From Fretibacterium fastidiosum (GTDB lineage: Bacteria > Synergistota > Synergistia > Synergistales > Aminobacteriaceae): a stretch of 64,000 bases of DNA. Shown here piece after piece: positions 16,924 through 60,092 of the stretch. The stretch is taken from the NCBI RefSeq assembly GCF_964642095.1, contig NZ_OZ209244.1:1765106-1829105 (forward strand), in the 5' to 3' direction. The notes under the pieces were generated by a model. It had not been told where the DNA came from, ran no database searches, and saw only the letters and a program-made list of their open reading frames with translations. Position 1 is the first letter of the stretch. Each line of letters opens with the position of its first letter. A program made the translations under genes and the position numbers.

Positions 16924-17132
16924 GGAAGCGCTGCTTAAAAAGTTGTTGAAAGCAATCAAGGAGCGTCAAACGAAGGGTATCCCTCAGCGCTTCCCTAAAA
17001 TTTTAAAATGGGGCTACGCCCCAATCCCCACGCGCTTCGCGCGGTCTGATGGGGTTCCAGGCGCTAAGGGGAGACAATACGGTTGACAGTTCTCAACGAC
17101 TTAGGCAATGTTTCCTTAGGGGGCGTGATCTT

Positions 17133-26621: not shown

Positions 26622-27868
26622 ACGGCAAGGACAGGATCGACGTCCTGATCGTGGGGGCGGGACCGGCCGGCATCGCGGCGGGGATCGGGGCGCGCCGGGC
26701 CGGCGCGGAGCGCGTCGTCGTGGCCGAGCGGGACTGGGACCTTGGCGGCATCCTTCAGCAGTGCATCCATCCGGGCTTCGGGCTGCGCACGTTCAAGGAG
26801 GAGCTGACGGGGCCGGAGTACATGCACCGCTTCGTTCAACAGGCACGGGAGGCGGGGGTGGAGTTCCTCACCAACACGATGGTCTTTCGGATGGACCCGG
26901 ACGGGGGGCTCTGGACGATGAACCGGGAGCGCGGGATCGAGCGCCTGACGGCGGGCGCGGTGGTGCTGGCCATGGGATGCCGCGAGCGCCCTCTGGGGGC
27001 CATCCGCGTTCCGGGCACCCGACCCGCCGGGATCTACACCGCCGGAACGGCACAACGCTTCGTCAACATGGAGGGCGGGATGCCGGGCAGGCGGGCGGTC
27101 ATCCTGGGGTCGGGGGATATCGGCCTGATCATGGCCCGCCGCATGGTGTGGGAGGGCGCGTCCGTCGAGGGGGTCTACGAGGTCATGTCCTGGGCGGGTG
27201 GCCTGAGGCGCAACATCGCGCAGTGCCTCGACGACTACGGCATCCCCTTCCACCTGGAGACGACGGTGACCCGCGTGCACGGCCACGACCGCCTGGAGGG
27301 GGTGACGGTGGCGAAGGTGGACGAACGCCGCGCGCCCATCCCCGACACCGAACGATTCGTCCCCTGCGACACGCTCCTGCTGGCCGTGGGGCTCATCCCG
27401 GAGAACGAGCTCTCGCGCATGGCGGGCCTCGCGATCCACCCCGTCACGGGTGGCCCCGTGGTGAACGACCTGCTGCAGACCAGCCGCCCCTCCGTCTTTG
27501 CGGCGGGCAACGTGTCGATCGTCTACGACCTCGTGGACAACGTGAGCGACGAGGGGCTGAGGGCCGGGGAGAACGCGGCGCGCTACGCCCGCGGCGAGCT
27601 GTCCGCGGCGCGGGCCATTCCAGTGCGCGGCGGCGAAAACGTCCGCCTCTTCCTGCCCCAGTGCGTGACGGGGGAGACGGACGTCACGATCTACATGCGC
27701 GTCACCCACCCCATCGAGGGAGCGTGTCAGGTAACGGCGGAGCCGGGGCTGTTCTCCCGGCGCCTGCGCTACGCCCGCCCCGGAGAGATGTGCGAGGCGC
27801 ACATTGAGGCGCAGCGGGTCCGCGCGGCGAACCCCGAAGAGATCGTGGTGGACGTCCAGCCGGCCTGA
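26618..27868 (+). CDS. pyridine nucleotide-disulfide (FAD/NAD) oxidoreductase, partner of the GlpA-like subunit
   Basis: ATG at 26618 overlaps the upstream stop (ATGA). DVLIVGAGPAGIAAG and a second GSGDIGL Rossmann motif. 416 aa. Confidence 0.75.
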   Translation: MNGKDRIDVLIVGAGPAGIAAGIGARRAGAERVVVAERDWDLGGILQQCIHPGFGLRTFKEELTGPEYMHRFVQQAREAGVEFLTNTMVFRMDPDGGLWTMNRERGIERLTAGAVVLAMGCRERPLGAIRVPGTRPAGIYTAGTAQRFVNMEGGMPGRRAVILGSGDIGLIMARRMVWEGASVEGVYEVMSWAGGLRRNIAQCLDDYGIPFHLETTVTRVHGHDRLEGVTVAKVDERRAPIPDTERFVPCDTLLLAVGLIPENELSRMAGLAIHPVTGGPVVNDLLQTSRPSVFAAGNVSIVYDLVDNVSDEGLRAGENAARYARGELSAARAIPVRGGENVRLFLPQCVTGETDVTIYMRVTHPIEGACQVTAEPGLFSRRLRYARPGEMCEAHIEAQRVRAANPEEIVVDVQPA

Positions 27869-28031
27869 TACCAATTCGCGTTTAAAGAAGGGCAAGAAAG
27901 GCCCCCCTGCAAGGGGGGCTGCCCCGAAGGGGCTGGGGGGTGTTGAGTAGGCTAAGAGCGAACCCCTCCGCCGCCCTTGGCGGCACCTCCCCTTTCAGGG
28001 GAGGCAATCCACATTAGACGCGATTTGGTAT
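27868..28031. repeat. MITE-like repeat copy A (~164 bp, terminal inverted repeats ATACCAATTCGCG / CGCGATTTGGTAT, three internal GC hairpins)
   Basis: Nearly identical core (GGCAAGAAAGGCCCCCCTGCAAGGGGGGCTGCCCCGAAGGGGCTGGGGGGTGTTGAG ... CCCCTTTCAGGGGAGGCAAT) recurs at 58278-58434 and inverted at 54178-54611. Here it sits between the oxidoreductase gene and the DUF1667 gene. Confidence 0.8.
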
Positions 28032-28075
28032 GAGCCAGTGCGTTGACGGGACCGGAAGGGATCGGTGGTGCTGGA

Positions 28076-28519: not shown

Positions 28520-30874
28520 CTAAACCGCACCCTTCGTGTCTCCCTCCCCCTGCGGGGCCGCATGGCCCAGGAGGCGCGCCTGCTCCCGGACCCGCCGGCG
28601 CACCATCTCGACGAAGCGCTCCGGCCCCAGCACCCGGACGAGGGGGCCGAACGCCAGGACGCGGATCAGGAGCTCTTTCTCGTCCTGGGTGTCATAGAGG
28701 ATGTGGAGCAGGCGCTCCCCGCTGGGTCCGGTTTGGGGACGGCAGGGGAAGCTGGCGAAGTGCAGAAGGGCCCGCTCCATGGCCTGCCGTTCCTCCGTCA
28801 GCAGCAGCACGACCGGCTCCGTCCGCGCTGAAGGGAGGGCCGCGCCCTCGGCTGCAGCGTACCTCGTGCCGAGGACGGCGCACTGGATGCGCGCCAGGTT
28901 GATCGTCTCTTCCCAAGCCGGTAGCCCTGGGTCGGCGCGCCGGGCGAGGAGGCGGAACCGGTCGTCCTTCAGGGAGTATTGAAGCCTTCGGGGCAGGAAG
29001 TTCCCGCGGACCTCGCGACCGTGCCCCGACGTGAAGCGCGCCCACAGGAGCCGCCCCTCCCGAAGGGACGTCAGGACCGTGCGAAAGACGCTGCGGTATT
29101 CCTCGTCCCGGAAGGGATCGGGGTCGTGGGAGCGGTCGAAGGCGCAGAGGTCCGAGGCCCGGAAGAGCGGCGCAGCCCCGCTCAGCCGGGCCTTCGCGCG
29201 GCGCAGGGCCTCCGGCTCCAGAAAGAGCCCCATCCGTTCGTCCTCCAGCAGCGCGGCGAGCCATCGCCGTTCCAGCGTGGAGAGCGGGCGGCGAACGGAG
29301 CGGAGACGGGGGACGAAGGCACGGTCGGCCCCCCTTTGAAAGAGCGGCCATTCCCCCTCCGTCAGGGGAGGGAGCATCAGGGCGGGGGTCTCGGCGAAGC
29401 CCCACCGGGCGACGCGCCGTCGGATCGCCTCCAGGGTCAGGGGGCCTTCCCGGTCGGCCCGCTCCAGCAATCGGGCCGCGATGACGTAGTAGCGCCCGAA
29501 GGCCTCGTGAAAGAGCGCGTCCGCTGCCCTGCACCGCCCGCCGTCGCTTGCGGCGTTCCCCTTCGAGCCGCTGCGGGCCGTTCTTGGCACCGAACCCTCC
29601 TTCGGCATCGGGCCGCAGGGGACGGACCCGCCGTCGCCGGAGTAGAGCGCCTCCATGCGGCGGAGGTCGTCGTGGAAGCGCCGCAGCATCCGTCGGTTGT
29701 CGCCTTTCAGGCTCAGAATCCGTCCCGTGAACGTCCGCAGGAAGGGAAGCATCTCCATGGAGTCCGACGCCCGCCGCTCGTAGACGATCGTCCCGTCGGG
29801 CCGCTCCGTCACACTCCCCCCGCGCCCCTCTCGTTTTAGGCGCTCTGCTACGTAGCGCTCCCTCCGTCCCTCCGTGGTCAGGACCATGCGCACCCGCTCC
29901 TCTCGAAGTGGGTAGGGAAGGCTGGCTCCCCACAGGCGGGGGAGGAGGGCGTCGAAGGCCTGCCGCTTGGCCTCGAAGTCGGGGACAGGCTCCCCCAGCC
30001 GCGCCGAATCCACGCGGTCCAGCCGGATCAGGGTGAAGCGCCCGCCCCGGTGCAGGACGCCGTAGCGCCGCCCGCTCTGAAGCCCGAACAGGGCCTTGAC
30101 CGGCGTCCCGGAGACGGTGCGGTCGCGGAGCTTCAGGACGACCTCCCGACCCTCGGCCGTGGCCGTGAGCAGGGTCAGGAGGACCGCGTCGTCCAGCGTG
30201 TGGACCAGGAAGTCGTGCTTGAAGCGAAAGAGGACGTTGACCCGCCCCAACTCGTCCTGGATGCGGGCGCCGATCTGTCCGAAGGGAGCCGCCTCCGTGA
30301 ATAAATCGACGGCCTCCAGCAGGTCCCCGCCCAGGTCCTCCGCACACAGGGGCGCGAGTCGGAACCGCTGGCGGCGTCCCGAATCGACCTCCTCCACAAG
30401 CCCCAACTCCGCGTACTCCTTCAGCTTCAGGCGCACCGTCGCGGTGCCGAAGACCTCGCCCCAGCGCTCCGCCAGGGCGTCAGTCGCCTCGTCCGCCGCG
30501 AGGGACGCACCGTCGCTCAGGAGGTCCAGCAGCAGGAAGTGGAGCAGAATGTCGTTTCGGGTGAAGCTCTTGGTCGCCCACAGGGCGTAGAGCGGGTTGC
30601 GCGGTTCGTCCGCGGCGTCCAGGCAGAGGGAGACGGCGCGGCCGCCCGGCGCGGGGGTGCGGCGCATCGAGTCGCCAAGCCAGCTCTCGATGCGCCGCCG
30701 CTCGTTGTCGTAGCTTCGCCTCGCCTCGTACTCCTCGCGGGTCCGGTAGCCGAACAGGTAGAAATCCCGAAGATAGCGGCGCGCCCGATCCAGGCTTTTG
30801 ACAAGCTCCGAAAAACGCATCTCCTTTCCCCCTTCGTCCTGAAACGGGGCCTCCCGGCCCCTTTCGTTCAGCAT
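28520..30874 (-). CDS. tandem wHTH-WYL-WCX transcriptional regulator (fused PafBC-like, 784 aa)
   Basis: Two consecutive modules. Each has an N-terminal HTH-like segment and WYL-like beta-rich cores (...YGVLHRGGRFTLIRLD..., ...LLWARFTSGHGREVRGNFLPRRLQYS...). C-terminal ...DGTIVYERRASDSMEMLPFLRTFTGRILSL / ...LLHILYDTQDEKELLIRVLAFGPLVRVLGPE resemble the PafC WCX domain. Confidence 0.55.
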   Translation of the reverse strand: MLNERGREAPFQDEGGKEMRFSELVKSLDRARRYLRDFYLFGYRTREEYEARRSYDNERRRIESWLGDSMRRTPAPGGRAVSLCLDAADEPRNPLYALWATKSFTRNDILLHFLLLDLLSDGASLAADEATDALAERWGEVFGTATVRLKLKEYAELGLVEEVDSGRRQRFRLAPLCAEDLGGDLLEAVDLFTEAAPFGQIGARIQDELGRVNVLFRFKHDFLVHTLDDAVLLTLLTATAEGREVVLKLRDRTVSGTPVKALFGLQSGRRYGVLHRGGRFTLIRLDRVDSARLGEPVPDFEAKRQAFDALLPRLWGASLPYPLREERVRMVLTTEGRRERYVAERLKREGRGGSVTERPDGTIVYERRASDSMEMLPFLRTFTGRILSLKGDNRRMLRRFHDDLRRMEALYSGDGGSVPCGPMPKEGSVPRTARSGSKGNAASDGGRCRAADALFHEAFGRYYVIAARLLERADREGPLTLEAIRRRVARWGFAETPALMLPPLTEGEWPLFQRGADRAFVPRLRSVRRPLSTLERRWLAALLEDERMGLFLEPEALRRAKARLSGAAPLFRASDLCAFDRSHDPDPFRDEEYRSVFRTVLTSLREGRLLWARFTSGHGREVRGNFLPRRLQYSLKDDRFRLLARRADPGLPAWEETINLARIQCAVLGTRYAAAEGAALPSARTEPVVLLLTEERQAMERALLHFASFPCRPQTGPSGERLLHILYDTQDEKELLIRVLAFGPLVRVLGPERFVEMVRRRVREQARLLGHAAPQGEGDTKGAV

Positions 30875-31167: not shown

Positions 31168-31447
31168 GCGTAGAAACAAAACGACGAAGTCGGAACGATG
31201 GGATATGGCGCTTTGCCGGTTCGGTCGCAGTTTGGGCCGGACGCCCCTGAAACCGTCTCGAGGCGTCCGAGGCCCCGTCCCGGACCTGCTGTGGCCCAGG
31301 CCTCCCCGGTGGGGACGGCTCCGGCCCGGCGCGTCCCGGACGGAACGGAGCCCCACGGGGACAGAGGGGCGACGCCGTATTCCATCAATATTCAAGGACG
31401 CTGATTGACGAAAGGCGCGTCCCGGAATGAATTTTAAGGAGGAAAAA

Positions 31448-32554
31448 ATGAAGATCACAGTCGGCGAGAACGAGCGCGCGTTTCTCTTTCGCAACGGTCG
31501 CTTCGTGAGGATGCTGGGAACGGGCAAGCACCGACTGTTTCGCTTTCTGGGAGAGGAAGTCCGTCGGCTGGACGTGAACGACGAGCCCCTGAACGCCGAC
31601 ATCCCGCTGCCGGTCTACCTTCGTGACGAGAACTTCGCGCGGGAGGTAGAGACGGTGCGGGTCTCCGACGGGCACGTGGCCCTGCACTACGTGGACGGAC
31701 GCTTTGCGGGCGTGCTGGAGCCGGGGGAGCACACCTACTGGAAGGTGTTCAGGAGCCACGACTTCAAGCTGGTGGATACGGAGGACGATACCGCTACCCT
31801 GCCTCCGCTGGTCCAGGAGGCCATCCCGAACTCGCTCTGTGAGCGGGTGGAGGTCGATGCCCACGAGGTCGCCCTGCTGTACGTGGACGGACGCTTTGAG
31901 CGCCTGCTGGAGCCGGGACGGTACTTCTTCTGGAGAAACGGCAGGAACATCGACTGGACGCCCTGCGACCTGCGCATCCGCCAGGTGGACGTCGCGGGCC
32001 AGGAGATTCTGACCCTGGACAAGGTGGCCCTTCGTCTCAACTTCGTCTGCACGTACCGAGTCCTGGACCCGGTGCGCCTGTATCGGGAACAGGAGGACCC
32101 GGAGCGCCAGCTCTACGCGGCCCTTCAGTTGGCCCTGCGCGAGGTGGTGGGACACCTGCGGTTCGACGAGCTCCTGGAGCGCAGGAACGACCTGGGCTCC
32201 CTGGTCCTGGAGGCCCTGCCCCATGACGGAATCGTGGAGTTCGTCTCCGCGGGGCTTCGGGACATCGTCCTGCCAGGCGAGATCCGGGAGATCATGAACA
32301 CGGTGTTGGTCGCAGAGAAGAAGGCCCAGGCCAGCGTCATCACCCGACGCGAGGAGGTGGCCTCCACCCGCAGCCTGTTGAACACCGCAAAGCTCATGGA
32401 GGAGAACGCCACACTCTTCAAGCTGAAGGAGCTGGAGTACCTGGAACGCATCTGTGAGAAGGTAGGATCCATCTCGCTGGACAACGCCTCCGGGATCCTG
32501 GAGCAGTTGCGGACCATGACCGCCCTCAGCGGGACGAAGTCCGACGAAAGGTAA
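31448..32554 (+). CDS. SPFH/band-7 (stomatin-prohibitin-flotillin) domain protein with three N-terminal YxDGRF-type repeats
   Basis: ATG at 31448 after AAGGAGG. C-terminal part (QEILTLDKVALRLNFVCTYRVLDPVRLYREQEDPERQLYAALQLALREVVGHLRFDELLERR...) is an SPFH/PHB core. N-terminus carries three similar ~35-aa motifs (FLFRNGRFVRMLGTGKH / HYVDGRFAGVLEPGEHTYW / LYVDGRFERLLEPGRYFFW). Confidence 0.7.
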   Translation: MKITVGENERAFLFRNGRFVRMLGTGKHRLFRFLGEEVRRLDVNDEPLNADIPLPVYLRDENFAREVETVRVSDGHVALHYVDGRFAGVLEPGEHTYWKVFRSHDFKLVDTEDDTATLPPLVQEAIPNSLCERVEVDAHEVALLYVDGRFERLLEPGRYFFWRNGRNIDWTPCDLRIRQVDVAGQEILTLDKVALRLNFVCTYRVLDPVRLYREQEDPERQLYAALQLALREVVGHLRFDELLERRNDLGSLVLEALPHDGIVEFVSAGLRDIVLPGEIREIMNTVLVAEKKAQASVITRREEVASTRSLLNTAKLMEENATLFKLKELEYLERICEKVGSISLDNASGILEQLRTMTALSGTKSDER

Positions 32555-32612: not shown

Positions 32613-35333
32613 CTACAACCCGCGAGCGATGGCTTTGAATGCTTCTATATTACACGTGCCCGGCCAGCCCGGTTGTCTTTGCTGAAACACCATGTAGTAG
32701 CGGAAGTCTTTCCCTGCCGCGCTGGCCCATTTGTCCCCGGTCCAGGCTTTTTCCCGTGAGTCCGCGTTCTCCAAGTGGTCGCCCTTCGCCTCGATCATCA
32801 AGACTTTGCCACTTTTGGTCATTGCGATGAAGTCCGGGTAGGCGTGCAGGGGCCCGTTGATCTGAAACTCCCGCTTGGCGATGTTCCGGTGCCACCACAA
32901 CAGGTTATCCATACCGGAAAGCTCCATCACCATGTCCCGCTCGTAGCCGTTCATGTCCTCCTCGGCGGTGTAGAGGGACTTTGCGATCGCCGCGGTGTGA
33001 CGGACCGGAGAGATGACCTCCCGCAGACGAAAGGAGGGACGGCAGATGATCTTTCCCTGATTCAGCAGAAGCTCAAAACGCTTCCTTCGGTGTTCCGTCA
33101 GCAGCGCGTTGATCTTTTCCTGAATCTTCCTGAAGTACGGGAAGGGCGATTGCTCCATGTCCCCAAGCTGATCTGAGTCCATGTTCTCCACGACGCGCTC
33201 GACGTACTTTCTCAGGTCAACGTCGCTGATGCAGTTGATCTTTGACGAAAGCTGCTCGAAGATCGTCTGCCGACACACGGCTATCCTCACGGTGGAGGGC
33301 TGGGAGCTGAACCACTTTTTGAACTGGAGGCTATCCGCTTCGGAGAGCTTCCAGGCCCTGGGAGCCTCGCCCTTCGCCCCCACGTCCACGCCGCCGATCT
33401 GGGTGTTCATCGTGCTGAAGTCGATCATCGTGTCTTTGTTCCGCAACGTGAAGTCCACCGTCAGGTCCTCCGGCTCCACGATCTCATAGTTGGCGTAGTC
33501 CCCCTCGTCCAGGGAGAGCAGGAGCATCTCCTTCTGTATCATGAACTGCGGAAGGATCAGTTTCTGCGCCGTCTCCCGATACTCCTCCCGCATCGCAAAA
33601 TACTCCATCTTCTCCCGCACCTCCACCGGAACGCGCGACAGGCCGCCGCCGTTTTTGCCGTCCCCGCCTTCCTCCTTCTCCATCTCCGCCTCGTATTTCG
33701 CGTTTTGCTCCAGCGCGCGGGCTAAGAGGTCATGACCGGGAATTTCGTCGGATATTTCAGGTTCCGACGAGCGATCCTCGTCCGGTTTCATCGCCTCCGC
33801 CACCCTGGTTTTCAGCGCGACGACGTCCACGTCCTGGTCCTCATTTGCCTCTGGAGTCTCATGGGCGCCCGATGGGTTCATTGAATCCGCTTCGGGGGAG
33901 ATGTGGAGCTGCAGGGCGGAAGGTTGCGTGTCCGCCTCGGCGGCGGGCGCAGAGTCCTCCGCGCGGTAGTCCCGACTGCTGAAGCCTGCGTTGTTCAACC
34001 CTGCCACCACGCGCTCCAGCGTGTCGTAGAAGTCGGCCGACGACGTGATGACGTAGGAGAGGTTCAACACCTCGCTCTTGTTTTTTCGCGCGTGCGGAAG
34101 GCGCAGGACGCGCCCCAGTATCTGCTCCACGTCGACCGGCGAAGATCGGTTTGCCACCGTGGCCAGCACGTAGGCAAAGGGGCAGTCCCAGCCCTCCTTC
34201 AGCGCGTTGACCGTGATGATAAAGCGCACCGGGCAGTCCTGCGAGAGCAGGTCCACGCCCCGCAGCTCGTCCCGGTCGGCGGTCTTTATGGCGATCTGCG
34301 CCTCCGGGATGCCCGCATCCACCAGCGTGTCCCTGATCTTCTGGTATGTCGCGTTGTCCGTGCTGTTCTTCGGCTGGGCCTGAAACAGGGCGATGGGGCG
34401 GATGTACGCCCCGGACTTCTCCGAGGCGGCGGCCCGCTCCAGCTTCTCCCGGATGCTGATGGCGTCTGCGTACACGTCGCCCTGGGTTCGGCGGTTATAG
34501 ACGATGACCGGTAGCTTCACCATGTGCTCTCGCTTCAGCTGCACGGCGTCCACGAAGGAGATCACGTTGCTCCTTTCCTTCGGTGTGGCCGTCAGCTCCA
34601 GCACGAAGCAGGGGTTGAAGTTCGCCAGCATCTCCCGGCTCAACTCGCTTTGGGCGTGGTGGCTCTCGTCCACGATCACCATTGGATTCATGCGGCGGAT
34701 GACCTGTATCAGCGCCGTGTCGTCGGCCTCCGCCGATGCGCCGCCGCTTTCGGCCTCCTGCTCCCTGTAAAATCTGGCGAAGGGAGCCAGGTTCCCGTTC
34801 TCCTGATAGGCCTTTCGGCCCTCCTTATTCTTTGTCCGGAAGGAATCATAGGACAGCACGAAGACGGAGAGCTGCTCCGTCACGGCCACGGGGTTGAAGT
34901 TCTGGCCGTTCAGAAGTTCCTGTTTCGTATAGACCTCAACGCGGCCGCTGAAGTCCAGGTTCAACTGCTGGCGGTAGGGGTGGCTGGCGGTGGAGAGCGC
35001 CTGATGCGTCTGCGTCAGGATAGCGTCCGATGGCACGAGCCACGCTACGGCCCGCACGCGACGGGCGGGCATGGCATTGAAGACCCGGCGCACCGCGTTG
35101 GCAGCGATGAAGGTTTTGCCGCCGCCGGTGGGCACCTTCAGGCACACTTCCGGCACACCCTCCAGTCCGACGCGGTAGGTCGCCATTCCGCTTTTTCCGC
35201 CATCGGTCACGGGCACGCCCCGCTCCTCCCACAATCGGCGGTAGGCCTCCCTGCTGTTCTGCGTTTCGTTCAACAAGTCAAGGAAACGCGACAGATCGGC
35301 GAGGACATCCTGTTGATACGATTTCAACTCCAT
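32613..35333 (-). CDS. res: Type III restriction enzyme Res subunit (SF2 helicase-like ATPase with C-terminal PD-(D/E)XK nuclease)
   Basis: 906 aa. Walker A PTGGGKT. DESHH (DEAH-like) box. C-terminal ...VLMIEAKGDHL... nuclease motif. Immediately downstream of the mod gene on the same strand. Confidence 0.8.
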   Translation of the reverse strand: MELKSYQQDVLADLSRFLDLLNETQNSREAYRRLWEERGVPVTDGGKSGMATYRVGLEGVPEVCLKVPTGGGKTFIAANAVRRVFNAMPARRVRAVAWLVPSDAILTQTHQALSTASHPYRQQLNLDFSGRVEVYTKQELLNGQNFNPVAVTEQLSVFVLSYDSFRTKNKEGRKAYQENGNLAPFARFYREQEAESGGASAEADDTALIQVIRRMNPMVIVDESHHAQSELSREMLANFNPCFVLELTATPKERSNVISFVDAVQLKREHMVKLPVIVYNRRTQGDVYADAISIREKLERAAASEKSGAYIRPIALFQAQPKNSTDNATYQKIRDTLVDAGIPEAQIAIKTADRDELRGVDLLSQDCPVRFIITVNALKEGWDCPFAYVLATVANRSSPVDVEQILGRVLRLPHARKNKSEVLNLSYVITSSADFYDTLERVVAGLNNAGFSSRDYRAEDSAPAAEADTQPSALQLHISPEADSMNPSGAHETPEANEDQDVDVVALKTRVAEAMKPDEDRSSEPEISDEIPGHDLLARALEQNAKYEAEMEKEEGGDGKNGGGLSRVPVEVREKMEYFAMREEYRETAQKLILPQFMIQKEMLLLSLDEGDYANYEIVEPEDLTVDFTLRNKDTMIDFSTMNTQIGGVDVGAKGEAPRAWKLSEADSLQFKKWFSSQPSTVRIAVCRQTIFEQLSSKINCISDVDLRKYVERVVENMDSDQLGDMEQSPFPYFRKIQEKINALLTEHRRKRFELLLNQGKIICRPSFRLREVISPVRHTAAIAKSLYTAEEDMNGYERDMVMELSGMDNLLWWHRNIAKREFQINGPLHAYPDFIAMTKSGKVLMIEAKGDHLENADSREKAWTGDKWASAAGKDFRYYMVFQQRQPGWPGTCNIEAFKAIARGL

Positions 35334-35345
35334 CTTTCGCGCCCC

Positions 35346-37070
35346 CTATATCTTCGTTATGTCCCGCGGGATTTTCTTAAATAAGACTCCGTATTTTTTC
35401 AGCTTGGCCGCCGACAAGGTGCAGATGTCCGCGTAGATGACTCTGGCAGCCGGCCCCGCCGGGAGCGTCCGCAAAAAGGCTTCGTCCAGGGCCGTGGGGC
35501 GGTCCGGCTCGTAGTAGAAATAGTACTCCGTCCCGTTCCATTCCCCCAGGCGCCAGGGGCTGGCGTCCGTTGGCGCCCCGGCCCAGGGCTGGCGCGTCTC
35601 CGTGTACCACACGTACTCCATCAGGCGCTCCGTCGGCGTCCTGGGGTTGATCAGGCCCTCCGCCGTCATCACCGTCGGGCCCAGCTCACAGAAGGTGAAG
35701 TCTCCACCCGTGCCTTCCGTGCCGCCGTAGCCGTTGATGACCCGGCGCACGCGCTCCGCCGTGATGCTCTCGGCGTAGTCCATCATCTCGACGAGGATGA
35801 ACCGCCGCCGCCCGCCGTCGGCTTTGTTCATATTCAGCACGGCGTGGGCCGTGGTGCCGGACCCGGCGAAGGAATCCAGGATGATGGAGTCGGGGTCGCC
35901 CGCTATCTTCAACACGAACTCTACCAGCCGCCGGGGTTTCGGTGTGTCAAAGGTGGCCCGGCCGTCGAAGATGGCCAGCATCTCCTTCTTCGCCTCGTCG
36001 GTGTGCCCCGTCTCCGCGTAGGTCCACAGATTCGTCGGCAGACGTCCGCCCACGCTGTCGAGGTATGTCTTTCTCGTGATGCCGCCTTTGCCGCCCTTCG
36101 TGAAGTAGAACCGTGGCCACTGGCCCCGCTTGTACACCTTTCGCGCATCGGCGGCGGCCTTCTCCGGAGGAACCGCCAACACGATGGCCTGCACTCCGGG
36201 GCGCACCTCCTCCGCCGCCACGCCGCACACGATCGCCCGTGCCTCCTCGTCGTGGAGGTCTTGCAGCTTGTAGGCCGTCCACCCGCTCATGATCTCCAGC
36301 ATCTGGTCCTGTCCGAAGGTCCAACAACGTCCATTTGTTGGGTAAATCATCTCGCCGGTAAAGGGGTGCTGGATGGCGTACACCATGCCCTGATGGGTGG
36401 CCGCGCCGGGCGCAAAGGGGTTATCAGAGCGCCACAAGGCTACGTCGTTGTCTGGGTTCCTATATTTTGCGTCCATCTCTTCCGTCCTTGGGAGTTTGTT
36501 TGGATTCCAGCCGGGACGCCGGCTGTAGGTCAGGATGTGTTCCACCTCGTTGACGATGCCCTTGGAGTCGTTGCGGGTGGAGTAGGTGCGCTGCCATGAG
36601 ATATTGGACACGAAGCAGTCCGGGCCGAATATCTCATCACACACGGCCTTCAGGTTGGAGTATTCCGCGTCGTCAATGCTGATGAAGATCGCGCCGGCAG
36701 GGCTCAACAGGCGGTGCAGCAGCCGAAGGCGCGGGTACATCATGCAGAGCCATTTGTCGTGTCGGCTCAGGTCCTCGCCCTCTTTTCCCACCACCGCCCC
36801 CAGCCAGCGACGGATCCTCGGGTCGTTCACGTTGTCGTTGTACACCCAGCCCTCGTTGCCGGTGTTGTATGGCGGGTCGATGTACACGCACTTAACGCGA
36901 CCTTCGTAGCGCGGCAGAAGGGCCTTGAGGGCCTCCAAGTTGTCGCCGCGTATGATGAGGTTGTCGCTCTCATCGGCCCCCACGGTGTATTTCTTCTCCA
37001 GCACGCGGAAGGGGACCTCCTGGTGGTGGTTGATCACCTTGTCCTTCCCGATCCATTCAAGCGTTGGCAT
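35346..37070 (-). CDS. mod: Type III R-M Mod subunit (N6-adenine DNA methyltransferase)
   Basis: 574 aa. Catalytic DPPYNTG (motif IV). SAM-binding FAGSGTT (motif I). Beta-class order typical of Type III Mod. Confidence 0.85.
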   Translation of the reverse strand: MPTLEWIGKDKVINHHQEVPFRVLEKKYTVGADESDNLIIRGDNLEALKALLPRYEGRVKCVYIDPPYNTGNEGWVYNDNVNDPRIRRWLGAVVGKEGEDLSRHDKWLCMMYPRLRLLHRLLSPAGAIFISIDDAEYSNLKAVCDEIFGPDCFVSNISWQRTYSTRNDSKGIVNEVEHILTYSRRPGWNPNKLPRTEEMDAKYRNPDNDVALWRSDNPFAPGAATHQGMVYAIQHPFTGEMIYPTNGRCWTFGQDQMLEIMSGWTAYKLQDLHDEEARAIVCGVAAEEVRPGVQAIVLAVPPEKAAADARKVYKRGQWPRFYFTKGGKGGITRKTYLDSVGGRLPTNLWTYAETGHTDEAKKEMLAIFDGRATFDTPKPRRLVEFVLKIAGDPDSIILDSFAGSGTTAHAVLNMNKADGGRRRFILVEMMDYAESITAERVRRVINGYGGTEGTGGDFTFCELGPTVMTAEGLINPRTPTERLMEYVWYTETRQPWAGAPTDASPWRLGEWNGTEYYFYYEPDRPTALDEAFLRTLPAGPAARVIYADICTLSAAKLKKYGVLFKKIPRDITKI

Positions 37071-37373
37071 GAGCTGTACCTCCGTTGGTTCGTTCGTTCC
37101 GCTCCAGATACGAGCCGTGCGGCCTGCTCTGACCGTGGCCGTGACCCCGCGTCGGCCTCTTCAGTCGGATGCCTCCCCCGTAAGGAGTAAACTCGATTTT
37201 ATCACCAACCTTTGCTGTGTGATCGCCCCGATCGCCGGCACAAGTCGCCTCCCTTTTCCGGGGAGGCGACGACGTATTCTGGTTCGGGGAAGGTTGATTG
37301 ATTGAACGCAGAGTTTCGTCAACGCAGGTTTTTGCGTGTTGACCCTGGGTTACGCGCAAAATGCGCTGCAAAT

Positions 37374-37403
37374 TTGGGGTTTGTGACCCGTTGTTGCTAT
37401 AAT
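37374..37403 (+). promoter_or_regulatory. candidate promoter of the Rpn array (TTGGGG-18-TGcTATAAT, extended -10)
   Basis: TATAAT at 37398-37403 preceded by TGC. About 30 nt upstream of the first Rpn start. Confidence 0.45.
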
Positions 37404-37432
37404 AAAGCCAACGAATACGTTGCCTGCTGGGG

Positions 37433-38554
37433 GTGATGAACATGGATGATGACAAGGGAGAGAAGTCGAGGGGCGTTCCGGTGATGACGACGCACGAACG
37501 GCAGGAGATGCTGAACCTCCAGGAGCAGGGGGAGCTGCCGGAGAACATCGACCGCTCCACCGACCTGTACTTCCGCTTCCTGCTGGGGACGCCGGCGCGG
37601 GGCCGGCTGCTTCGCGATATGCTGAACGCCTTCTTCGGCGCCCTGGGCTATCCCCTGCTGCAGACGGTGACCCTCACGGACACCGAGCGCGAGCCCGAGG
37701 CGCTGGGGGCGAAGTACACGCGCCTCGACCTGACGGCGCTGGACGATCTGGGCCGCACCCTCCACATCGAGATGCAGCGGGAGAACTACACCCACTTTCA
37801 AAAGCGCTGCCTCTTCTACCTGTGCCGGAACTACACGAGGTCGCTCAAGAGGGGCGAAGGGTACGCGAGCCTGTCCCCGATCGTCTCCATCTCCCTGTTG
37901 GGATTCGACCTTTTCGAGGGAGAGCGTGGGCTGTGGGACTTTGCGCTGATGAACCCTGATACGGGGCGTCGCCTGATGGAGGCGGACGACCTTCTTCTGT
38001 TCTACGTCGAGCTGAACAAGGCGTCGCGCCCCCTTCGGGAGCTGCGGGCGAAGCTGAAGGCGAGGCCGGGGCACGTTCTGAGCCCCGAGGAGCGTGCGCA
38101 GGTATGGGGAGGCTACATCAACAACGAGAGCGAGGGGTTGGCCCTGCTGCGCGAGAGCTTGTCGGGGGATACCGTTTTTTCGGAGGTGAGCGAGGTGGAG
38201 CAGGAGTACTGGAGTTCTCCGGAGAACCGCTACTATCAGCTGCGGGAGATGATGACGCAGCTGGATTATAAGGCGATTCGTGAGGACCGTCTGGCGGAGG
38301 CGACGAGGGCAGTCCGTGAAAAGGCTTGGGCCGAGGGTGTAGCCGAGGGCAGAGCTAAAGGCGAGGCTAAGGGCTGGACTAAAGGCAAAGCTGAGGGCAA
38401 AGCTGAAGGCAAGGCCGAGGGCATAGCCGAGGGCGAGTTACTGGGCAGGCAGGAGACGGCGCGCGCCATGCTGCGGGAAGGGATGTCCCCGGCTTCTGTC
38501 GCGCGCTTCACCCGCCTTTCCCCGGGCGAGGTCGAAGCCCTGAAGGGGAGTTGA
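37433..38554 (+). CDS. Rpn (YhgA-like) family PD-(D/E)XK recombination-promoting nuclease / putative transposase, paralog 1
   Basis: 373 aa. N-terminal conserved core. C-terminal low-complexity repeat AEGVAEGRAKGEAKGWTKGKAEGKAEGKAEGIAEGELLGRQETARAMLREGMS typical of the TIGR01784/Rpn family. First of three tandem copies. Confidence 0.7.
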   Translation: MMNMDDDKGEKSRGVPVMTTHERQEMLNLQEQGELPENIDRSTDLYFRFLLGTPARGRLLRDMLNAFFGALGYPLLQTVTLTDTEREPEALGAKYTRLDLTALDDLGRTLHIEMQRENYTHFQKRCLFYLCRNYTRSLKRGEGYASLSPIVSISLLGFDLFEGERGLWDFALMNPDTGRRLMEADDLLLFYVELNKASRPLRELRAKLKARPGHVLSPEERAQVWGGYINNESEGLALLRESLSGDTVFSEVSEVEQEYWSSPENRYYQLREMMTQLDYKAIREDRLAEATRAVREKAWAEGVAEGRAKGEAKGWTKGKAEGKAEGKAEGIAEGELLGRQETARAMLREGMSPASVARFTRLSPGEVEALKGS

Positions 38555-38596
38555 GAGGACGGACGATCGGCGGATTCGCGTGGCCGTTTTCAGGGA

Positions 38597-39670
38597 GTGA
38601 TGAACGTGGATGATGGCAAGGGAGAGAAGGCGAGGGTCGTTCCGGCGATGACGACGCACGAGCGGCAGGAGATGCTGAACCTCCAGGAGCAGGGGGAGCT
38701 GCCGGAGAACATCGACCGCTCCACCGACCTGTACTTCCGCTTCCTGCTGGGGACGCCGGCGCGGGGCCGGCTGCTTCGCGATATGCTGAACGCCTTCTTC
38801 GGCGCCCTGGGCTATCCCCTGTTGCAGACGGTGACCCTCACGGACACCGAGCGCGAGCCCGAGGCGCTGGGGGCGAAGTACACGCGCCTCGACCTGACGG
38901 CGCTGGACGACCTGGGCCGCACCCTCCACATCGAGATGCAGCGGGAGAACTACACCCACTTTCAGAAGCGCTGCCTCTTCTACCTGTGTCGGAACTACAC
39001 GAGGTCGCTCAAGAGGGGCGAGGGGTACGCGAGCCTGTCCCCGATCGTCTCCATCTCCCTGTTGGGATTCGACCTTTTCGAGGGAGAGCGTGGGCTGTGG
39101 GACTTCGCACTGATGAACCCCGGGACGGGGCGTCGTCTGATGGAGGTGGACGACCTTCTTCTGTTCTACGTCGAGCTGAACAAGGCGAAGCACCCCCTTC
39201 GGGAGCTGCGGGCGAAGCTGAAGGCGAGGCCGGGGCACATTCTGAGTCCCGAGGAGCGCGCGCAGGTATGGGGAGGCTACATCAACAACGAGAGCGAGGG
39301 GCTGGCCCTTCTGCGCGAGAGCTTGTCGGGGGATACCGTTTTTTCGGAGGTGAGCGAGGTGGAGCAGGAGTACTGGAGTTCTCCGGAGAACCGCTACTAT
39401 CAGCTGCGGGAGATGATGACGCAACTGGATTACAAGGCGATTCGGGAGGACCGGCTGGTGGAGGCGACGAGGGCGGTCCGCGAGAAGGCTTGGGCTGAGG
39501 GCGAGGCTAAAGGCTGGACTAAAGGTAAAGCTGAAGGTAAAGCCGAGGGCGAGCTGTTGGGCAGGCAGGAGACGGCACGCGCCATGCTGCGGGAAGGGAT
39601 GTCTCCGGCTTCCGTCGCGCGCTTCACCCGCCTTTCCCCGGGCGAGGTCGAGGCCCTGAAGGAGCGTTGA
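38597..39670 (+). CDS. Rpn (YhgA-like) family nuclease, paralog 2
   Basis: 357 aa. Over 90% identical to paralog 1 by eye. Shorter KAEG repeat tract (AEGEAKGWTKGKAEGKAEGELLG). Confidence 0.7.
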   Translation: MMNVDDGKGEKARVVPAMTTHERQEMLNLQEQGELPENIDRSTDLYFRFLLGTPARGRLLRDMLNAFFGALGYPLLQTVTLTDTEREPEALGAKYTRLDLTALDDLGRTLHIEMQRENYTHFQKRCLFYLCRNYTRSLKRGEGYASLSPIVSISLLGFDLFEGERGLWDFALMNPGTGRRLMEVDDLLLFYVELNKAKHPLRELRAKLKARPGHILSPEERAQVWGGYINNESEGLALLRESLSGDTVFSEVSEVEQEYWSSPENRYYQLREMMTQLDYKAIREDRLVEATRAVREKAWAEGEAKGWTKGKAEGKAEGELLGRQETARAMLREGMSPASVARFTRLSPGEVEALKER

Positions 39671-39712
39671 GGGGACGGACGATCGGCAGATTTGCGTGGC
39701 CGCTTTCAGGGG

Positions 39713-40750
39713 GTGATGAGCATGGATGAGGACAAGGCGAGGGTTGTTCCGGCGATGACGACGCACGAACGGCAGGAGATGCTGAACCTCCAGGAGCAGG
39801 GGGAGCTGCCGGAGAACATCGACCGCTCCACCGACCTGTACTTCCGCTTCCTGCTGGGGACGCCGGCGCGGGGCCGGCTGCTTCGCGATATGCTGAACGC
39901 CTTCTTCGGCGCCCTGGGCTATCCCCTGCTGCAGACGGTGACCCTCACGGACACCGAGCGCGAGCCCGAGGCGCTGGGGGCGAAGTACACGCGCCTCGAC
40001 CTGACGGCGCTGGACGATCTGGGCCGCACCCTCCACATCGAGATGCAGCGGGAGAACTACACCCACTTTCAAAAGCGCTGCCTCTTCTACCTGTGCCGGA
40101 ACTACACGAGGTCGCTCAAGAGGGGCGAAGGGTACGCGAGCCTGTCCCCGATCGTCTCCATCTCCCTGTTGGGATTCGACCTTTTCGAGGGAGAGCGTGG
40201 GCTGTGGGACTTTGCGCTGATGAATCCCGGTACGGGGCGTCGTCTGATGGAGGCGGACGACCTTCTTCTGTTCTACGTCGAGTTGAACAAGGCGAAGCAC
40301 CCCCTGCGGGAGCTGCGGGCGAAGCTGAAGGCGAGGCCGGGGCACGTTCTGAGCCCCGAGGAGCGCGCGCAGGTATGGGGAGGCTACATCAACAACGAGA
40401 GCGAGGGGTTGGCCCTGCTGCGCGAGAGCTTGTCGGGGGATACCGTTTTTTCGGAGGTGAGCGAGGTGGAGCAGGAGTACTGGAGTTCTCCGGAGAACCG
40501 CTACTATCAGCTGCGGGAGATGATGACGCAGCTGGATTACAAGGCGATTCGGGAGGACCGGTTGGCGGAGGCAACGAGGGCGGTCCGCGAGAAGGCCTGG
40601 GCCGAGGGCGAGGCTAAAGGTAAAGCTGAGGGCGAACTGCTTGGCAGGCAGGAGACGGCGCGCGCCATGCTGCGGGAAGGGATGTCCCTGGCTTCCGTTG
40701 CACGCTTCACCCGCCTTTCCCCGGGCGAGGTCGAGGCCCTGAAGATTTAG
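39713..40750 (+). CDS. Rpn (YhgA-like) family nuclease, paralog 3 (start by analogy with paralogs 1/2; track ORF begins at 39692)
   Basis: Near-identical to paralogs 1 and 2. Shortest repeat tract (AEGEAKGKAEGELLG). A few substitutions (S->L in ...GMSLASVARF). Confidence 0.65.
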   Translation: MMSMDEDKARVVPAMTTHERQEMLNLQEQGELPENIDRSTDLYFRFLLGTPARGRLLRDMLNAFFGALGYPLLQTVTLTDTEREPEALGAKYTRLDLTALDDLGRTLHIEMQRENYTHFQKRCLFYLCRNYTRSLKRGEGYASLSPIVSISLLGFDLFEGERGLWDFALMNPGTGRRLMEADDLLLFYVELNKAKHPLRELRAKLKARPGHVLSPEERAQVWGGYINNESEGLALLRESLSGDTVFSEVSEVEQEYWSSPENRYYQLREMMTQLDYKAIREDRLAEATRAVREKAWAEGEAKGKAEGELLGRQETARAMLREGMSLASVARFTRLSPGEVEALKI

Positions 40751-40926
40751 GAAGGTGCTGAAGGATACCCTTAGTTTGAACCAAAATCCTCAGGCAAAGT
40801 TTTAACGTGTAGCGGAGATAGATTTTGTGCGTTTTCTGCCGCACCTGCCAGGCGCGGCAGAAAACGTGCAGGCCTGCCCTCACTCTATGTTAAAAATTTC
40901 CCGTAAAATTAAAACTTTCGACCCTG

Positions 40927-41439
40927 TCAACCGCCAGAGAAAAAGCCATCCTTGAGACACTCTTCGCTGAGCCAGGGTGACCGTTTTTCCTGAAAAGACT
41001 GCTTCCAGGGATGGTTTGGGACGGGCGTGTGGGTTTTTGCAGGTTCGCCCTCATTTCCTTTTGTCGCATTGCTCGGAGCGGCACGCTCCGCCTTCTCGAC
41101 CTCCCTCATCTCGATACGACATCCCTTGTGAATGACCCATATCTTTCCTGAGAGACTCTCCCTGACCTCCACATCGGAACGGGCCATAAAGGCTTTCTCA
41201 GGGGTGTTGGGGGCATAGGTTCGTCCTTTGTAAGAAATGCTTCCGCCGCAATCCATCTTACGCATCTCCCGGTGAGCGAAAAGGAAATCCACATCGACCC
41301 TTTCTGCAGGCTCAACGTAGGCGCTCTCCTGTTCTGCGGGCAGAACCGCTTCCTGCCCGCCAGCAGCTCCATGACCTTGATGCGCTTGATCTCTTTTTGT
41401 GACAATGCCACTCGCTCCTGCTTCATACCTAAGTATCAC
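40927..41439 (-). CDS. hypothetical protein (possible transposase/integrase C-terminal remnant)
   Basis: 170-aa ORF in an otherwise non-coding stretch between the Rpn array and the tRNA array. No recognisable motifs. Call is weak. Confidence 0.3.
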   Translation of the reverse strand: MILRYEAGASGIVTKRDQAHQGHGAAGGQEAVLPAEQESAYVEPAERVDVDFLFAHREMRKMDCGGSISYKGRTYAPNTPEKAFMARSDVEVRESLSGKIWVIHKGCRIEMREVEKAERAAPSNATKGNEGEPAKTHTPVPNHPWKQSFQEKRSPWLSEECLKDGFFSGG

Positions 41440-41534
41440 CCAAAGACCTGCCTCCCGCGGAGAGGGGTGACATTTTCTCTGACTACTTATAGGGTAACAT
41501 GATCACTGATCAACGACAAACTTTGAGGCCCTGC

Positions 41535-41563
41535 TTGACAGAAACGACAGGGGTAGGTATACT
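41535..41563 (+). promoter_or_regulatory. consensus sigma-70 promoter of the tRNA operon (TTGACA-17-TATACT)
   Basis: TTGACA at 41535-41540, a 17-bp spacer, then TATACT at 41558-41563. About 15 nt upstream of tRNA-Val. Confidence 0.7.
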
Positions 41564-41578
41564 ATCTTTCGTGCTTGA

Positions 41579-41653
41579 GGGCGGATAGTTCAGCGGTAGA
41601 ACACCTGCCTTACACGCAGGGGGTCACAGGTTCGAACCCTGTTTCGCCCACCA
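41579..41653 (+). tRNA. tRNA-Val (anticodon TAC)
   Basis: GGGCGGATAGTTCAGCGGTAGAAC...CTTACAC anticodon loop...GGTTCGAACCCTGTTTCGCCCACCA. Cloverleaf fits, 75 nt with CCA. Confidence 0.85.
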
Positions 41654-41663
41654 TTGAAAAAGC

Positions 41664-41740
41664 GGGGTCGTAGCTCAGTTGGTTAGAGTGTCGGCCTGTC
41701 ACGCCGAAGGTCGCGAGTTCGAGTCTCGTCGGCCCCGCCA
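41664..41740 (+). tRNA. tRNA-Asp (anticodon GTC)
   Basis: GGGGTCGTAGCTCAGTTGGTTAGAGT...CCTGTCACG anticodon loop...GAGTTCGAGTCTCGTCGGCCCCGCCA. 77 nt. Confidence 0.85.
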
Positions 41741-41755
41741 GTTCAATATTTCGTG

Positions 41756-41831
<76 letters not shown>

Positions 41832-41844
41832 GGTCAGCGAAAAT

Positions 41845-41919
41845 GCGGAAGTAGCTCAGAGGTAGAGCACAACCTTGCCAAGGTTGGGGTCGCGGGTTCG
41901 AACCCCGTCTTCCGCTCCA
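41845..41919 (+). tRNA. tRNA-Gly (anticodon GCC)
   Basis: GCGGAAGTAGCTCAGAGGTAGAGC...CCTTGCCAAGG...GGGTTCGAACCCCGTCTTCCGCTCCA. 75 nt. Confidence 0.85.
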
Positions 41920-41932
41920 AATTTTAAAGAGT

Positions 41933-41967
41933 GAGGTCCTGCAGGAAGCGGGACCTCTGTTTTTTTG
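41933..41967 (+). terminator. intrinsic terminator after the tRNA array
   Basis: GAGGTCC-tgcaggaagcg-GGACCTC followed by TGTTTTTTT. Confidence 0.7.
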
Positions 41968-42190
41968 AGAACTGTCCTAATGGAAGAAGAGGAGCGATGG
42001 GAGGGTTTTTGATCAATTTTGAATGAACCCGATGCCCTTCTCCTTTAAAAGCCTGAAATTTTTTTTAGCGGACCTCGTTTTTTTACGGATTTTCATATAC
42101 AATCAACAAGGTGTCCCAACAGGGTATCCTCGGTGCGCTTTATGTGAAGGCTGGGGCGTCTCTCCTTCGGGGGGGGAAGGGGCTATAGCG

Positions 42191-54017: not shown

Positions 54018-54177
54018 CGCTGCGCCCGGTCCGGGGACGGCACGGATTGAGCGCGACGAAGGATCGGCGATTTTTTCAAAAGGGGCGTTCCGTGAAATTT
54101 TAAATGGGGCTGCGCTCCCCTTCGGGGAGCTTTCCGGCGGGCAGTTCCCAACGATTTAGCTAGCGTTTCTTTCTAAA

Positions 54178-54611
54178 TACAAAATCGCGTCTAATGTGGA
54201 TTGCCTCCCCTGAAAGGGGAGGTGCCGCCAAGGGCGGCGGAGGGGTTCAGCCAGACGACCGGCCTCACGCAAGCCGATCTTTCGGGAGGATTGCGGCGGC
54301 CGGCCGATCGGCTGAGGGCGAAGGAAGTCCGGGGGACTTCCGCAGCTCAGCCAGACGACACGACTTACGGACGCCGACAGGCGGTCGGCGTCGTGTCGGT
54401 CGGCTGAGCCGAAGCAAGGTAATTGATTGCCTTGTGGAGGCGTTGACGGGGAATGTCAGACAGGCGCGTCTTATGAAAAACACCCCTCCCCTTCGGGGAG
54501 CCTTCCGGCAGCCGTTCGCTGACGCTCACGGGCCGTCAGTCCTAGCCCCTTCGGGGCAGCCCCCCTTGCAGGGGGGGCCTTTCTTGCCCTTCTTTAAACG
54601 CGATTTGGTAT
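54178..54611. repeat. MITE-like repeat copy B (~434 bp, inverted relative to copies A/C, composite with ~270-bp internal segment)
   Basis: Left end ATACAAAATCGCGTCTAATGTGGATTGCCTCCCCTGAAAGGGGAGGTG is the reverse complement of copy A's right end. Right end ...CCCCTTCGGGGCAGCCCCCCTTGCAGGGGGGGCCTTTCTTGCCCTTCTTTAAACGCGATTTGGTAT is the reverse complement of copy A's left end. Interior carries extra direct repeats (CAGCCAGACGAC x2) and palindromes. Confidence 0.75.
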
Positions 54612-58230: not shown

Positions 58231-58277
58231 AGGCCGCCCCGGCCACTCGGCGGGGCACTGAAAGAAACACTGACTAA

Positions 58278-58434
58278 TACCAATTTGCGTCTAAAGGGCA
58301 AGAAAGGCCCCCCTGCAAGGGGGGCTGCCCCGAAGGGGCTGGGGGGTGTTGAGCCTGAGAAACAACCCCTCCGGTTCGCTGACGCGAACCACCTCCCCTT
58401 TCAGGGGAGGCAATCATTAAACGCGAATTGGTAT
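58278..58434. repeat. MITE-like repeat copy C (~157 bp)
   Basis: ATACCAATTTGCGTCTAAAGGGCAAGAAAGGCCCCCCTGCAAGGGGGGCTGCCCCGAAGGGGCTGGGGGGTGTTGAG...CCCCTTTCAGGGGAGGCAATCATTAAACGCGAATTGGTAT. Same orientation and core as copy A. Confidence 0.8.
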
Positions 58435-58436
58435 AA

Positions 58437-60092
<1,656 letters not shown>

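Follow-up and report, generated by a model that had tools for sequence, protein, structure and literature searches.

Two proteins are made from genes of the rpn family: RpnL, a toxic nuclease, and RpnS, a small C-terminal protein, which is initiated internally and binds and blocks RpnL (Zhong et al., 2023; PMC10400941). The long helix shared by RpnL and RpnS holds a four-residue repeat, the number of which varies among strains, and one repeat added to RpnC(S) or to RpnC(L) abolishes inhibition unless both proteins have it (PMC10400941). The same study concluded that rpn arrays arise by tandem duplication, and reported that rpn genes cluster with defence genes and that RpnP2 protects against phages (PMC10400941), whilst a commentary by Koonin predicted that, in genomes with multiple copies, repeat variation prevents inhibition in trans between paralogues (Koonin, 2023; PMC10400984). 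The intragenic antitoxin, repeat-number specificity, tandem rpn arrays and the insulation of paralogues are thus already in print (Zhong et al., 2023; Koonin, 2023). Here we analyse three tandem rpn genes lying between positions 37433 and 40750 of a stretch of 64,000 nucleotides (nt) from Fretibacterium fastidiosum (NCBI RefSeq assembly GCF_964642095.1, contig NZ_OZ209244.1, positions 1,765,106 to 1,829,105; hereafter the window, to whose numbering coordinates refer unless another contig is named). It is probable, in our assessment, that they form a single-promoter, three-gene array of Rpn toxin/intragenic-antitoxin modules in a strain-variable defence island of F. fastidiosum SGP1, and at the level of sequence the array agrees with each feature described by Zhong et al.

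As in the Escherichia coli proteins RpnA-E and the plasmid-encoded RpnP2, a PD-(D/E)XK nuclease is followed by a helix-plus-helix-turn-helix (HTH) domain homologous to RpnA(S), a strain-variable four-residue repeat lies in the long helix, defence genes are found nearby, and an internal Shine-Dalgarno (SD) sequence and start, candidates only in the present case, stand ahead of the C-terminal domain. The locus differs from these systems in its N-terminal domain, in a longer tract (up to 9 units, and 13 in relatives), in a helix that extends much further ahead of the repeats and in the greater length of the predicted RpnS. In the mechanism that we propose, each gene would give rise to a full-length PD-(D/E)XK nuclease, RpnL, made up of the nuclease domain, a repeat-bearing helix of ~86 residues and a C-terminal HTH, and most likely also to a short C-terminal RpnS (119, 103 and 94 amino acids (aa) for copies 1, 2 and 3 respectively) that shares this helix and HTH. 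On the model of E. coli RpnC, each RpnS would bind and silence only the RpnL with the same number of repeats in its helix, and the 9, 5 and 3 units of the three copies would insulate the three pairs from each other and keep them from heterodimerising, despite their nearly identical nuclease domains. We infer RpnS translation, repeat-matched inhibition, toxicity and an anti-phage role by homology with the published systems.

Three head-to-tail open reading frames (ORFs) on the + strand, the strand of all features below unless stated, occupy positions 37433-38554, 38597-39670 and 39692-40750, exactly as given in a preliminary description of the window, and as maximal ORFs they have the lengths listed there (373, 357 and 352 aa). 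As genes they are shorter, the SD sites (GGGGGTGAT / GGGAGTGAT, -11.4 to -16.8 kcal/mol) favouring starts at 37442 (ATG), 38606 (GTG) and 39722 (ATG), the equivalents of which are picked by gene callers in the rpn genes of relatives, and giving proteins of 370, 354 and 342 aa. Copy 1 (37442-38554; start SD -15.8 kcal/mol) encodes a nuclease domain, a long helix with 9 xAxG units and a C-terminal HTH; copy 2 spans 38606-39670, and copy 3 (39722-40750) has three codons deleted in its N-terminal tail and a C-terminus that is one codon shorter. The DNA units are spaced at 1164 and 1107 nt, with 97-98% identity across their first 300 nt. Counted from the SD-supported starts, the two spacers have the same length of 51 nt each (38555-38605, holding the SD of copy 2, and 39671-39721, holding that of copy 3), in keeping with the common short spacer noted in the preliminary description. 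A 635-aa antisense ORF (38438-40345) was dismissed as a by-product of the high G+C content and the repeated sense frame.

The triplication might instead be an assembly artefact of a single- or double-copy locus. In an older draft of SGP1 (GCA_000210715.1, FP929056.1), to which an exact match of the neighbouring MotA protein pointed and the flanks of which are 100% identical to the window over 18.6 kb, a run of ~1,700 Ns (L004, 7109-8812) stands in place of window positions 37376-41276, which hold the rpn array and part of a remnant resembling an insertion sequence (IS), and most metagenomic contigs with relatives are about one unit long. The older draft is itself gapped, with 362 contigs and 9.95% Ns, whereas the published closed SGP1 genome was obtained from Oxford Nanopore Technologies reads with an N50 of 6.4 kb at 109x (PMC11984142), a length exceeding that of the 3.3-kb array. 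The gap at this very place therefore suggests that the array could not be assembled earlier and is resolved in the present assembly. Furthermore, the copies differ at 20-31 of 855 nt, have distinct in-frame tracts and are all open under purifying selection, and copy-to-copy junctions, in which the 51-nt spacer links one C-terminus to the next N-terminus, are present in two independent short-read metagenome contigs (L021, with the junction of the first spacer, and L022, with a junction identical to that of the second). We regard an artefact as scarcely credible. Rather, a genuine array would account for the gap left in the first SGP1 assembly and for the fragmentation of metagenome assemblies at Fretibacterium rpn genes. 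At a second, short N-gap of the older draft (L004, 14126-14344) the window holds no extra sequence. A single-copy rpn locus seen on contigs L002 and L020 runs on through the same spacer into what is left of a second copy, a decayed remnant of 40 codons (2845-2989; residues 194-233), which suggests that arrays also decay; this locus adjoins an ornithine carbamoyltransferase gene.

Assignment to the Rpn family, proposed in the preliminary description, is borne out by profile searches. The NCBIfam model TIGR01784 ('Rpn family recombination-promoting nuclease/putative transposase') matches the three copies at 83.9, 85.4 and 90.2 bits against a cut-off of 52.1, and Pfam PDDEXK_2 matches them at 95.6-96.2 bits against a cut-off of 27.4 (E~1e-27). 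PDDEXK_7, named beside TIGR01784 in the preliminary description as a model to be searched, gave no match at E<=0.01 with the full proteins nor at E<=10 with the nuclease domain. The label 'YhgA-like' does not hold in its narrow sense, the nuclease domain being unmatched by PF04754 (Transposase_31, the model of the E. coli YhgA type) even at E<=10, where PDDEXK_2 alone was reported. These matches place the copies in the TIGR01784/PDDEXK_2 branch of the Rpn family (COG5464), and not among YhgA-type orthologues. A family alignment of 70 sequences shows no variation at D96, E110, Q112 or R122, all of which are intact in the three copies (codons for D96, E110 and Q112 of copy 1 at 37727, 37769 and 37775, within 37727-37777); the resulting D...E-x-Q is a variant form of the PD-(D/E)XK motif, from which catalysis is predicted. 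The plasmid homologues found in Bacillus and Leptospira, both genera named by Zhong et al., carry an Rpn family annotation.

At the other end of the protein, a profile built from the 70-sequence alignment matches PDB entry 7TH0_A ('Recombination-promoting nuclease RpnA'), in which RpnA(S) of E. coli (49 aa) was crystallised, with E=1.3e-5 across the C-terminal HTH (the final ~38 residues). In copy 1 this HTH, homologous to E. coli RpnA(S), is encoded at 38435-38554 (ELLGRQETARAMLREGMSPASVARFTRLSPGEVEALKGS). Homologues 89-95% identical to the rpn copies carry PF27070 (HTH_Rpn_C) as a precomputed domain; the same model was unmatched when the C-terminal 101 aa were compared with a local copy of Pfam, being probably newer than the local library, and the matches returned by that scan, Yae1_N, HTH_Tnp_ISL3 and others, were set aside as noise. 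Matches to FliH models of NCBIfam (17-37 bits against cut-offs of 180-293) were likewise rejected as low-complexity similarity of an A/E/K/G-rich helix. PADLOC returned a weak C-terminal match only ('C3a178 putative invertase', E=1e-5), from a 2023 library holding no dedicated Rpn model. The AlphaFold2 model (mean predicted local distance difference test score 84.8) has an alpha/beta nuclease core, one unbroken helix at residues 260-345 (86 residues) that holds the tract, and then two short helices. This single predicted helix agrees with the published lengthening of the first RpnS helix by repeats (PMC10400941). Fold searches with the whole model were weak, with restriction-type nucleases and small HTH domains among the matches listed. 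A scan of genome contigs with copy 1 gave one distant C-terminal match only, in a Clostridia metagenome-assembled genome, and the exact sequence of copy 1 was absent from the assembly collection by exact look-up. Distant full-length homologues (22% identity, 91% coverage) occur in four Wolbachia phage WO genome records, where they are labelled transposase or hypothetical protein.

The length differences among the three copies stem mainly from a 12-nt/4-aa xAxG repeat tract, as had been claimed in the preliminary description, with 9 units in copy 1 (38327-38434; WAEG VAEG RAKG EAKG WTKG KAEG KAEG KAEG IAEG, within the predicted helix 260-345), 5 in copy 2 (39491-39550) and 3 in copy 3 (40598-40633). 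The expectation of repeat-length variation also held at the population level: among 42 close relatives the tract spans 3-13 units and its length is always a multiple of 4 aa, and the terminal rpn copy at the same locus has 6 units in other strains (L006-L008) against 3 here. Across relatives in public assemblies the nuclease domain is nearly invariant, and alternative HTH 'alleles' are also present. The paralogues of this genome do differ in repeat number, as in Koonin's prediction (PMC10400984). What may be distinctive here is the combination of three copies, one putative promoter and 96-97% amino acid identity; with one promoter and near-identical copies, repeat number is almost the sole variable. 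A comparable arrangement is known in the unrelated HsdS proteins of EcoR124I and EcoR124II, cited in PMC10400941, in which an in-frame 12-nt repeat number (TAEL) in a helix also alters specificity; there, however, it sets the spacing of the DNA target and not the pairing of toxin with antitoxin.

If each gene also yields an RpnS, an internal ribosome-binding site and start would be expected ahead of the C-terminal domain. The best candidate in copy 1 lies at 38175-38197, where a T-run is followed by the SD GGAGGTGA (38182-38189), a 5-nt spacer and an in-frame GTG at 38195 (TTTTTTC-GGAGGTGA-GCGAG before the GTG). The equivalent codons of copies 2 and 3 lie at 39359 and 40466, and initiation at the three GTGs would give the predicted RpnS proteins of 119, 103 and 94 aa. 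SD pairing at this GTG (-15.6 kcal/mol) ranks within the top 1% of in-frame positions and matches that at the gene's own start; it is stronger than at 36/36 neighbouring annotated starts (median -10.8 kcal/mol), and only 4/835 internal in-frame start codons in the 36 control genes reach -15 kcal/mol. The 21 nt TTT TCG GAG GTG AGC GAG GTG are invariant in 17/17 gene copies. Across five lineages down to 69% identity, the same seven codons are the longest codon-invariant run of the gene, elsewhere in which 64% of amino-acid-invariant codons vary synonymously. We favour this GTG as a much better candidate for an internal start than the site put forward previously, an in-frame Met-Met 54 nt further downstream.

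The rival view, that RpnS starts at the Met-Met or at another downstream codon, has several points to commend it: translation starts better at ATG than at GTG, all three window copies and most close relatives have the Met-Met, a GGGAG precedes it, and the site, 10 residues into the long helix, comes nearer to the published spacing from the repeats. In copy 1 the pair of ATG codons lies at 38249-38254 (M270/M271 in 370-aa numbering), the codon positions being 38249/38252, 39413/39416 and 40520/40523 in copies 1, 2 and 3; the positions ~39365 and ~40445 previously given for copies 2 and 3 were off by 48 and 75 nt. The SD-like GGGAG stands only 0-3 nt from the ATGs, however, and pairs at only -2.2/-7.4 kcal/mol, and neither Met is conserved in close relatives, where one or the other is lost in the variants EMV (ATG GTA), EIM (ATA ATG) and ELM (CTG ATG) and both are lost in ELI (CTG ATA). 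The 21-nt stretch at the upstream GTG, by comparison, is kept in copies that lack the Met-Met. Copies 2 and 3 also have a GTG or TTG with an SD of -10.3 kcal/mol, 11-15 residues before the tract, but this third site, which falls on the RL(A/V) codons, was discounted as a general start, having a start codon in 5/17 copies and none in copy 1. A start downstream of the GTG is thus an unlikely alternative. A perfect 14-nt palindrome, GTTCTCCGGAGAAC (codons S-S-P-E-N), occurs 19 nt past the candidate GTG in every copy (38214-38227, 39378-39391 and 40485-40498), its P-E-N codons being invariant across lineages, and could be a hairpin or a binding site.

Several points nonetheless weigh against the reading of each gene as a toxin with its own repeat-matched antitoxin. 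The candidate GTG lies 44 residues, and the Met-Met 25-26 residues, ahead of the first repeat, as against 8-20 residues in the RpnS proteins surveyed by Zhong et al. (PMC10400941), and with a start so far upstream the predicted RpnS of 94-119 aa would be roughly double the length of RpnA(S) from E. coli (49 aa). An internal SD and start of this strength is to be expected by chance in about one in seven genes of this length (4 per 10,619 codons), the invariance of the 21 nt could partly stem from gene conversion or amino acid constraint, and the repeat-matching rule comes from the E. coli type, whilst the N-terminal domain here is PDDEXK_2 with no match to PF04754. These considerations leave room for genes that make the full-length protein only, with a repeat helix that sets homodimer geometry or acts in autoinhibition in cis, with an array that adds dosage or variant dimers, and with an internal SD and GTG that are a by-product of the conserved peptide FSEVSEV. 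Such a scheme would sit well with a GTG outside the 8-20-residue range of known RpnS proteins, with the conservation of the peptide itself and with the chance of ~0.14 per gene, which is not rare. It does not readily account for seven of seven codons that are synonymously invariant in five lineages, including one at 69% identity, where 64% of amino-acid-invariant codons vary elsewhere, nor for an internal SD that beats all 36 neighbouring gene starts; moreover, RpnS expression has been shown for all five E. coli genes and for a gene of Clostridioides difficile (PMC10400941). At this locus in another Fretibacterium strain, the only rpn copy is truncated at its 5' end (L006, 3803-4360); it begins at '...RLMEADDLLL' and keeps exactly this region, namely the internal SD and GTG, the helix, 6 repeats and the HTH. 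It resembles the published stand-alone RpnSs or DUF4351 genes, such as ypaA beside rpnE (Zhong et al., 2023), unlike the three window copies, which are full length. We therefore consider production of the full-length protein alone quite unlikely, and retain the internal GTG as the probable origin of an RpnS. The truncated copy in L006 adjoins MatE, GH114 and methyltransferase genes in place of a restriction-modification (R-M) system.

A promoter-like element is present ahead of copy 1 only (37374-37403), with a weak -35 (TTGGGG, 37374-37379) and a perfect extended -10 (TGcTATAAT, 37395-37403). This putative promoter is part of a conserved leader of ~70 nt with an invariant GTTGTTGCTATAATAAAGCC, which is also found before rpn cassettes in no fewer than four other genomic contexts. 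Copies 2 and 3 have no such leader, the spacers hold no promoter- or terminator-like site and a consensus promoter scan found no internal promoter, a result that speaks neither for nor against an internal transcript of the E. coli kind; nor did the scan call the element of copy 1, the -35 of which is weak. Downstream of copy 3 a hairpin with 18-bp arms (40830-40866; 94% complementary, without a T-run) is a putative end of the three-gene transcript. Given the leader before copy 1 only, spacers devoid of promoters and terminators and a hairpin after copy 3, the simplest reading is that the three rpn genes are carried on one transcript.

In order to compare the copies we left out the disordered N-terminal tail and the repeat tract, leaving 966 nt (855 nt of the N-terminal part and 111 nt of the C-terminal part). 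Pairs of copies differ at 23-38 of the 966 nt (20-31/855 and 7-9/111 in the two parts respectively), with 96-97% identity of the proteins, so that the description of the copies as near-identical was sound. Only 3-8 of these differences change an amino acid. The ratio of non-synonymous to synonymous differences per site (pN/pS) is 0.05-0.13 for all three pairs at a pS of 0.08-0.26, the synonymous divergence being lower in the nuclease part (0.08-0.11) than in the C-terminal HTH part (0.20-0.26). These values indicate that all three copies are held under purifying selection, and with 8-11% and 20-26% synonymous divergence they are not brand-new duplicates; the near-identity of the proteins is due to purifying selection and not just to recency. 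Over a stretch of 470 nt (37484-37953 and 39755-40224) the non-adjacent copies 1 and 3 have the same sequence, from which copy 2 differs at 8 synonymous sites, and further downstream the shared differences form a mosaic pattern across the copies, which together point to gene conversion within the array.

We propose that the array arose by tandem duplication of a unit comprising SD, ORF and tail, and was later reshaped by gene conversion and by in-frame expansion or contraction in steps of 12 nt. An alternative origin would have the units as insertion sequences, with a PDDEXK_2 'transposase' inserted three times at one site. Pfam and NCBIfam do use 'transposase' in their names for the family, the cassette with its leader recurs in different genomic contexts and an IS-like remnant adjoins the array. 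No terminal inverted repeats surround the units, however, a scan of 37200-41000 giving only the intragenic palindrome and the downstream hairpin, and this absence argues for tandem duplication and not for repeated transposition. Furthermore, the leader is missing from copies 2 and 3, and a single 51-nt junction is common to them, as tandem duplication predicts; tandem duplication was also the conclusion of Zhong et al. for rpn arrays in general (PMC10400941). Repeated insertion is very improbable, and tandem duplication remains our explanation. The array resembles published tandem rpn arrays, such as those of multi-copy Bacillus thuringiensis genomes (PMC10400941, Supporting Information Fig. 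S1B), in being head-to-tail without terminal inverted repeats or target-site duplications.

Taken further, and more tentatively, it is possible, although we would put it somewhat below an even chance, that the operon consists of three mutually orthogonal toxin-antitoxin pairs that differ functionally only in the length of the helix, with purifying selection keeping the set whilst gene conversion and 12-nt slippage re-deal it, making the array a reservoir of new 'length-coded' specificities. On the same tentative footing, the antitoxin of the PDDEXK_2 branch would be a long RpnS (94-119 aa), made from a GTG with a synonymously invariant ribosome-binding site 44 residues before the repeats, unlike the 49-aa RpnA(S). 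The locus offers a clean natural test case of repeat-number specificity, with probably co-transcribed copies that have near-identical nuclease domains and whose tetrad number (9/5/3) is almost the only difference, for which reason a comparison of cross-inhibition among them would be easy to interpret. It also extends the Rpn system to the Synergistota and gives a specific candidate internal start for the PDDEXK_2 branch of the family. Fretibacterium fastidiosum is a fastidious human oral bacterium linked to periodontitis.

Upstream of the array lies a type III R-M system on the - strand (32613-37070), with res at 32613-35333 and mod at 35346-37070 (Pfam ResIII and N6_N4_Mtase; PADLOC REase_III, E=6.5e-84, and MTase_III, E=1.8e-182), and this adjoining system suggests a defence-island context for the rpn genes. 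On the other side, a tRNA cluster (Val-Asp-Phe-Gly, 41579-41919) forms the right bound of what appears to be a strain-variable island; the four tRNAs were the only matches in an Rfam scan of 36900-42100. Contigs of other strains (L005, L009 and L011) match the window at 98-99% from tRNA-Val onward and carry unrelated sequence upstream (boundary 41522-41579), and this divergence just upstream of tRNA-Val points to the type III R-M system, the rpn array and the IS-like remnant as a strain-variable island.

The IS-like remnant between array and tRNAs (40927-41439, - strand) consists of two ORFs of 170 and 106 aa in overlapping frames, which look like a frameshifted transposase and gave no Pfam or PADLOC match. 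In L006-L008 the region is conserved in its place between the terminal rpn copy and the tRNAs, and is annotated there as a gene of 159 aa. Just past the type III R-M genes lie an SPFH/Band-7 protein gene (31427-32554, + strand) and a gene for a 784-aa protein with a C-terminal WYL/WCX domain (28520-30874, - strand), both of which may be further defence-island content. Finally, an intergenic repeat of ~170 nt with 83-98% identity is dispersed over the window (58251-58480, 27865-28034, 54177-54224 and 17079-17103) and follows directly after an rpn stop codon in the metagenome contig L018 (1082-1225); it may be an element of the miniature inverted-repeat transposable element or repetitive extragenic palindromic type (MITE/REP-like).

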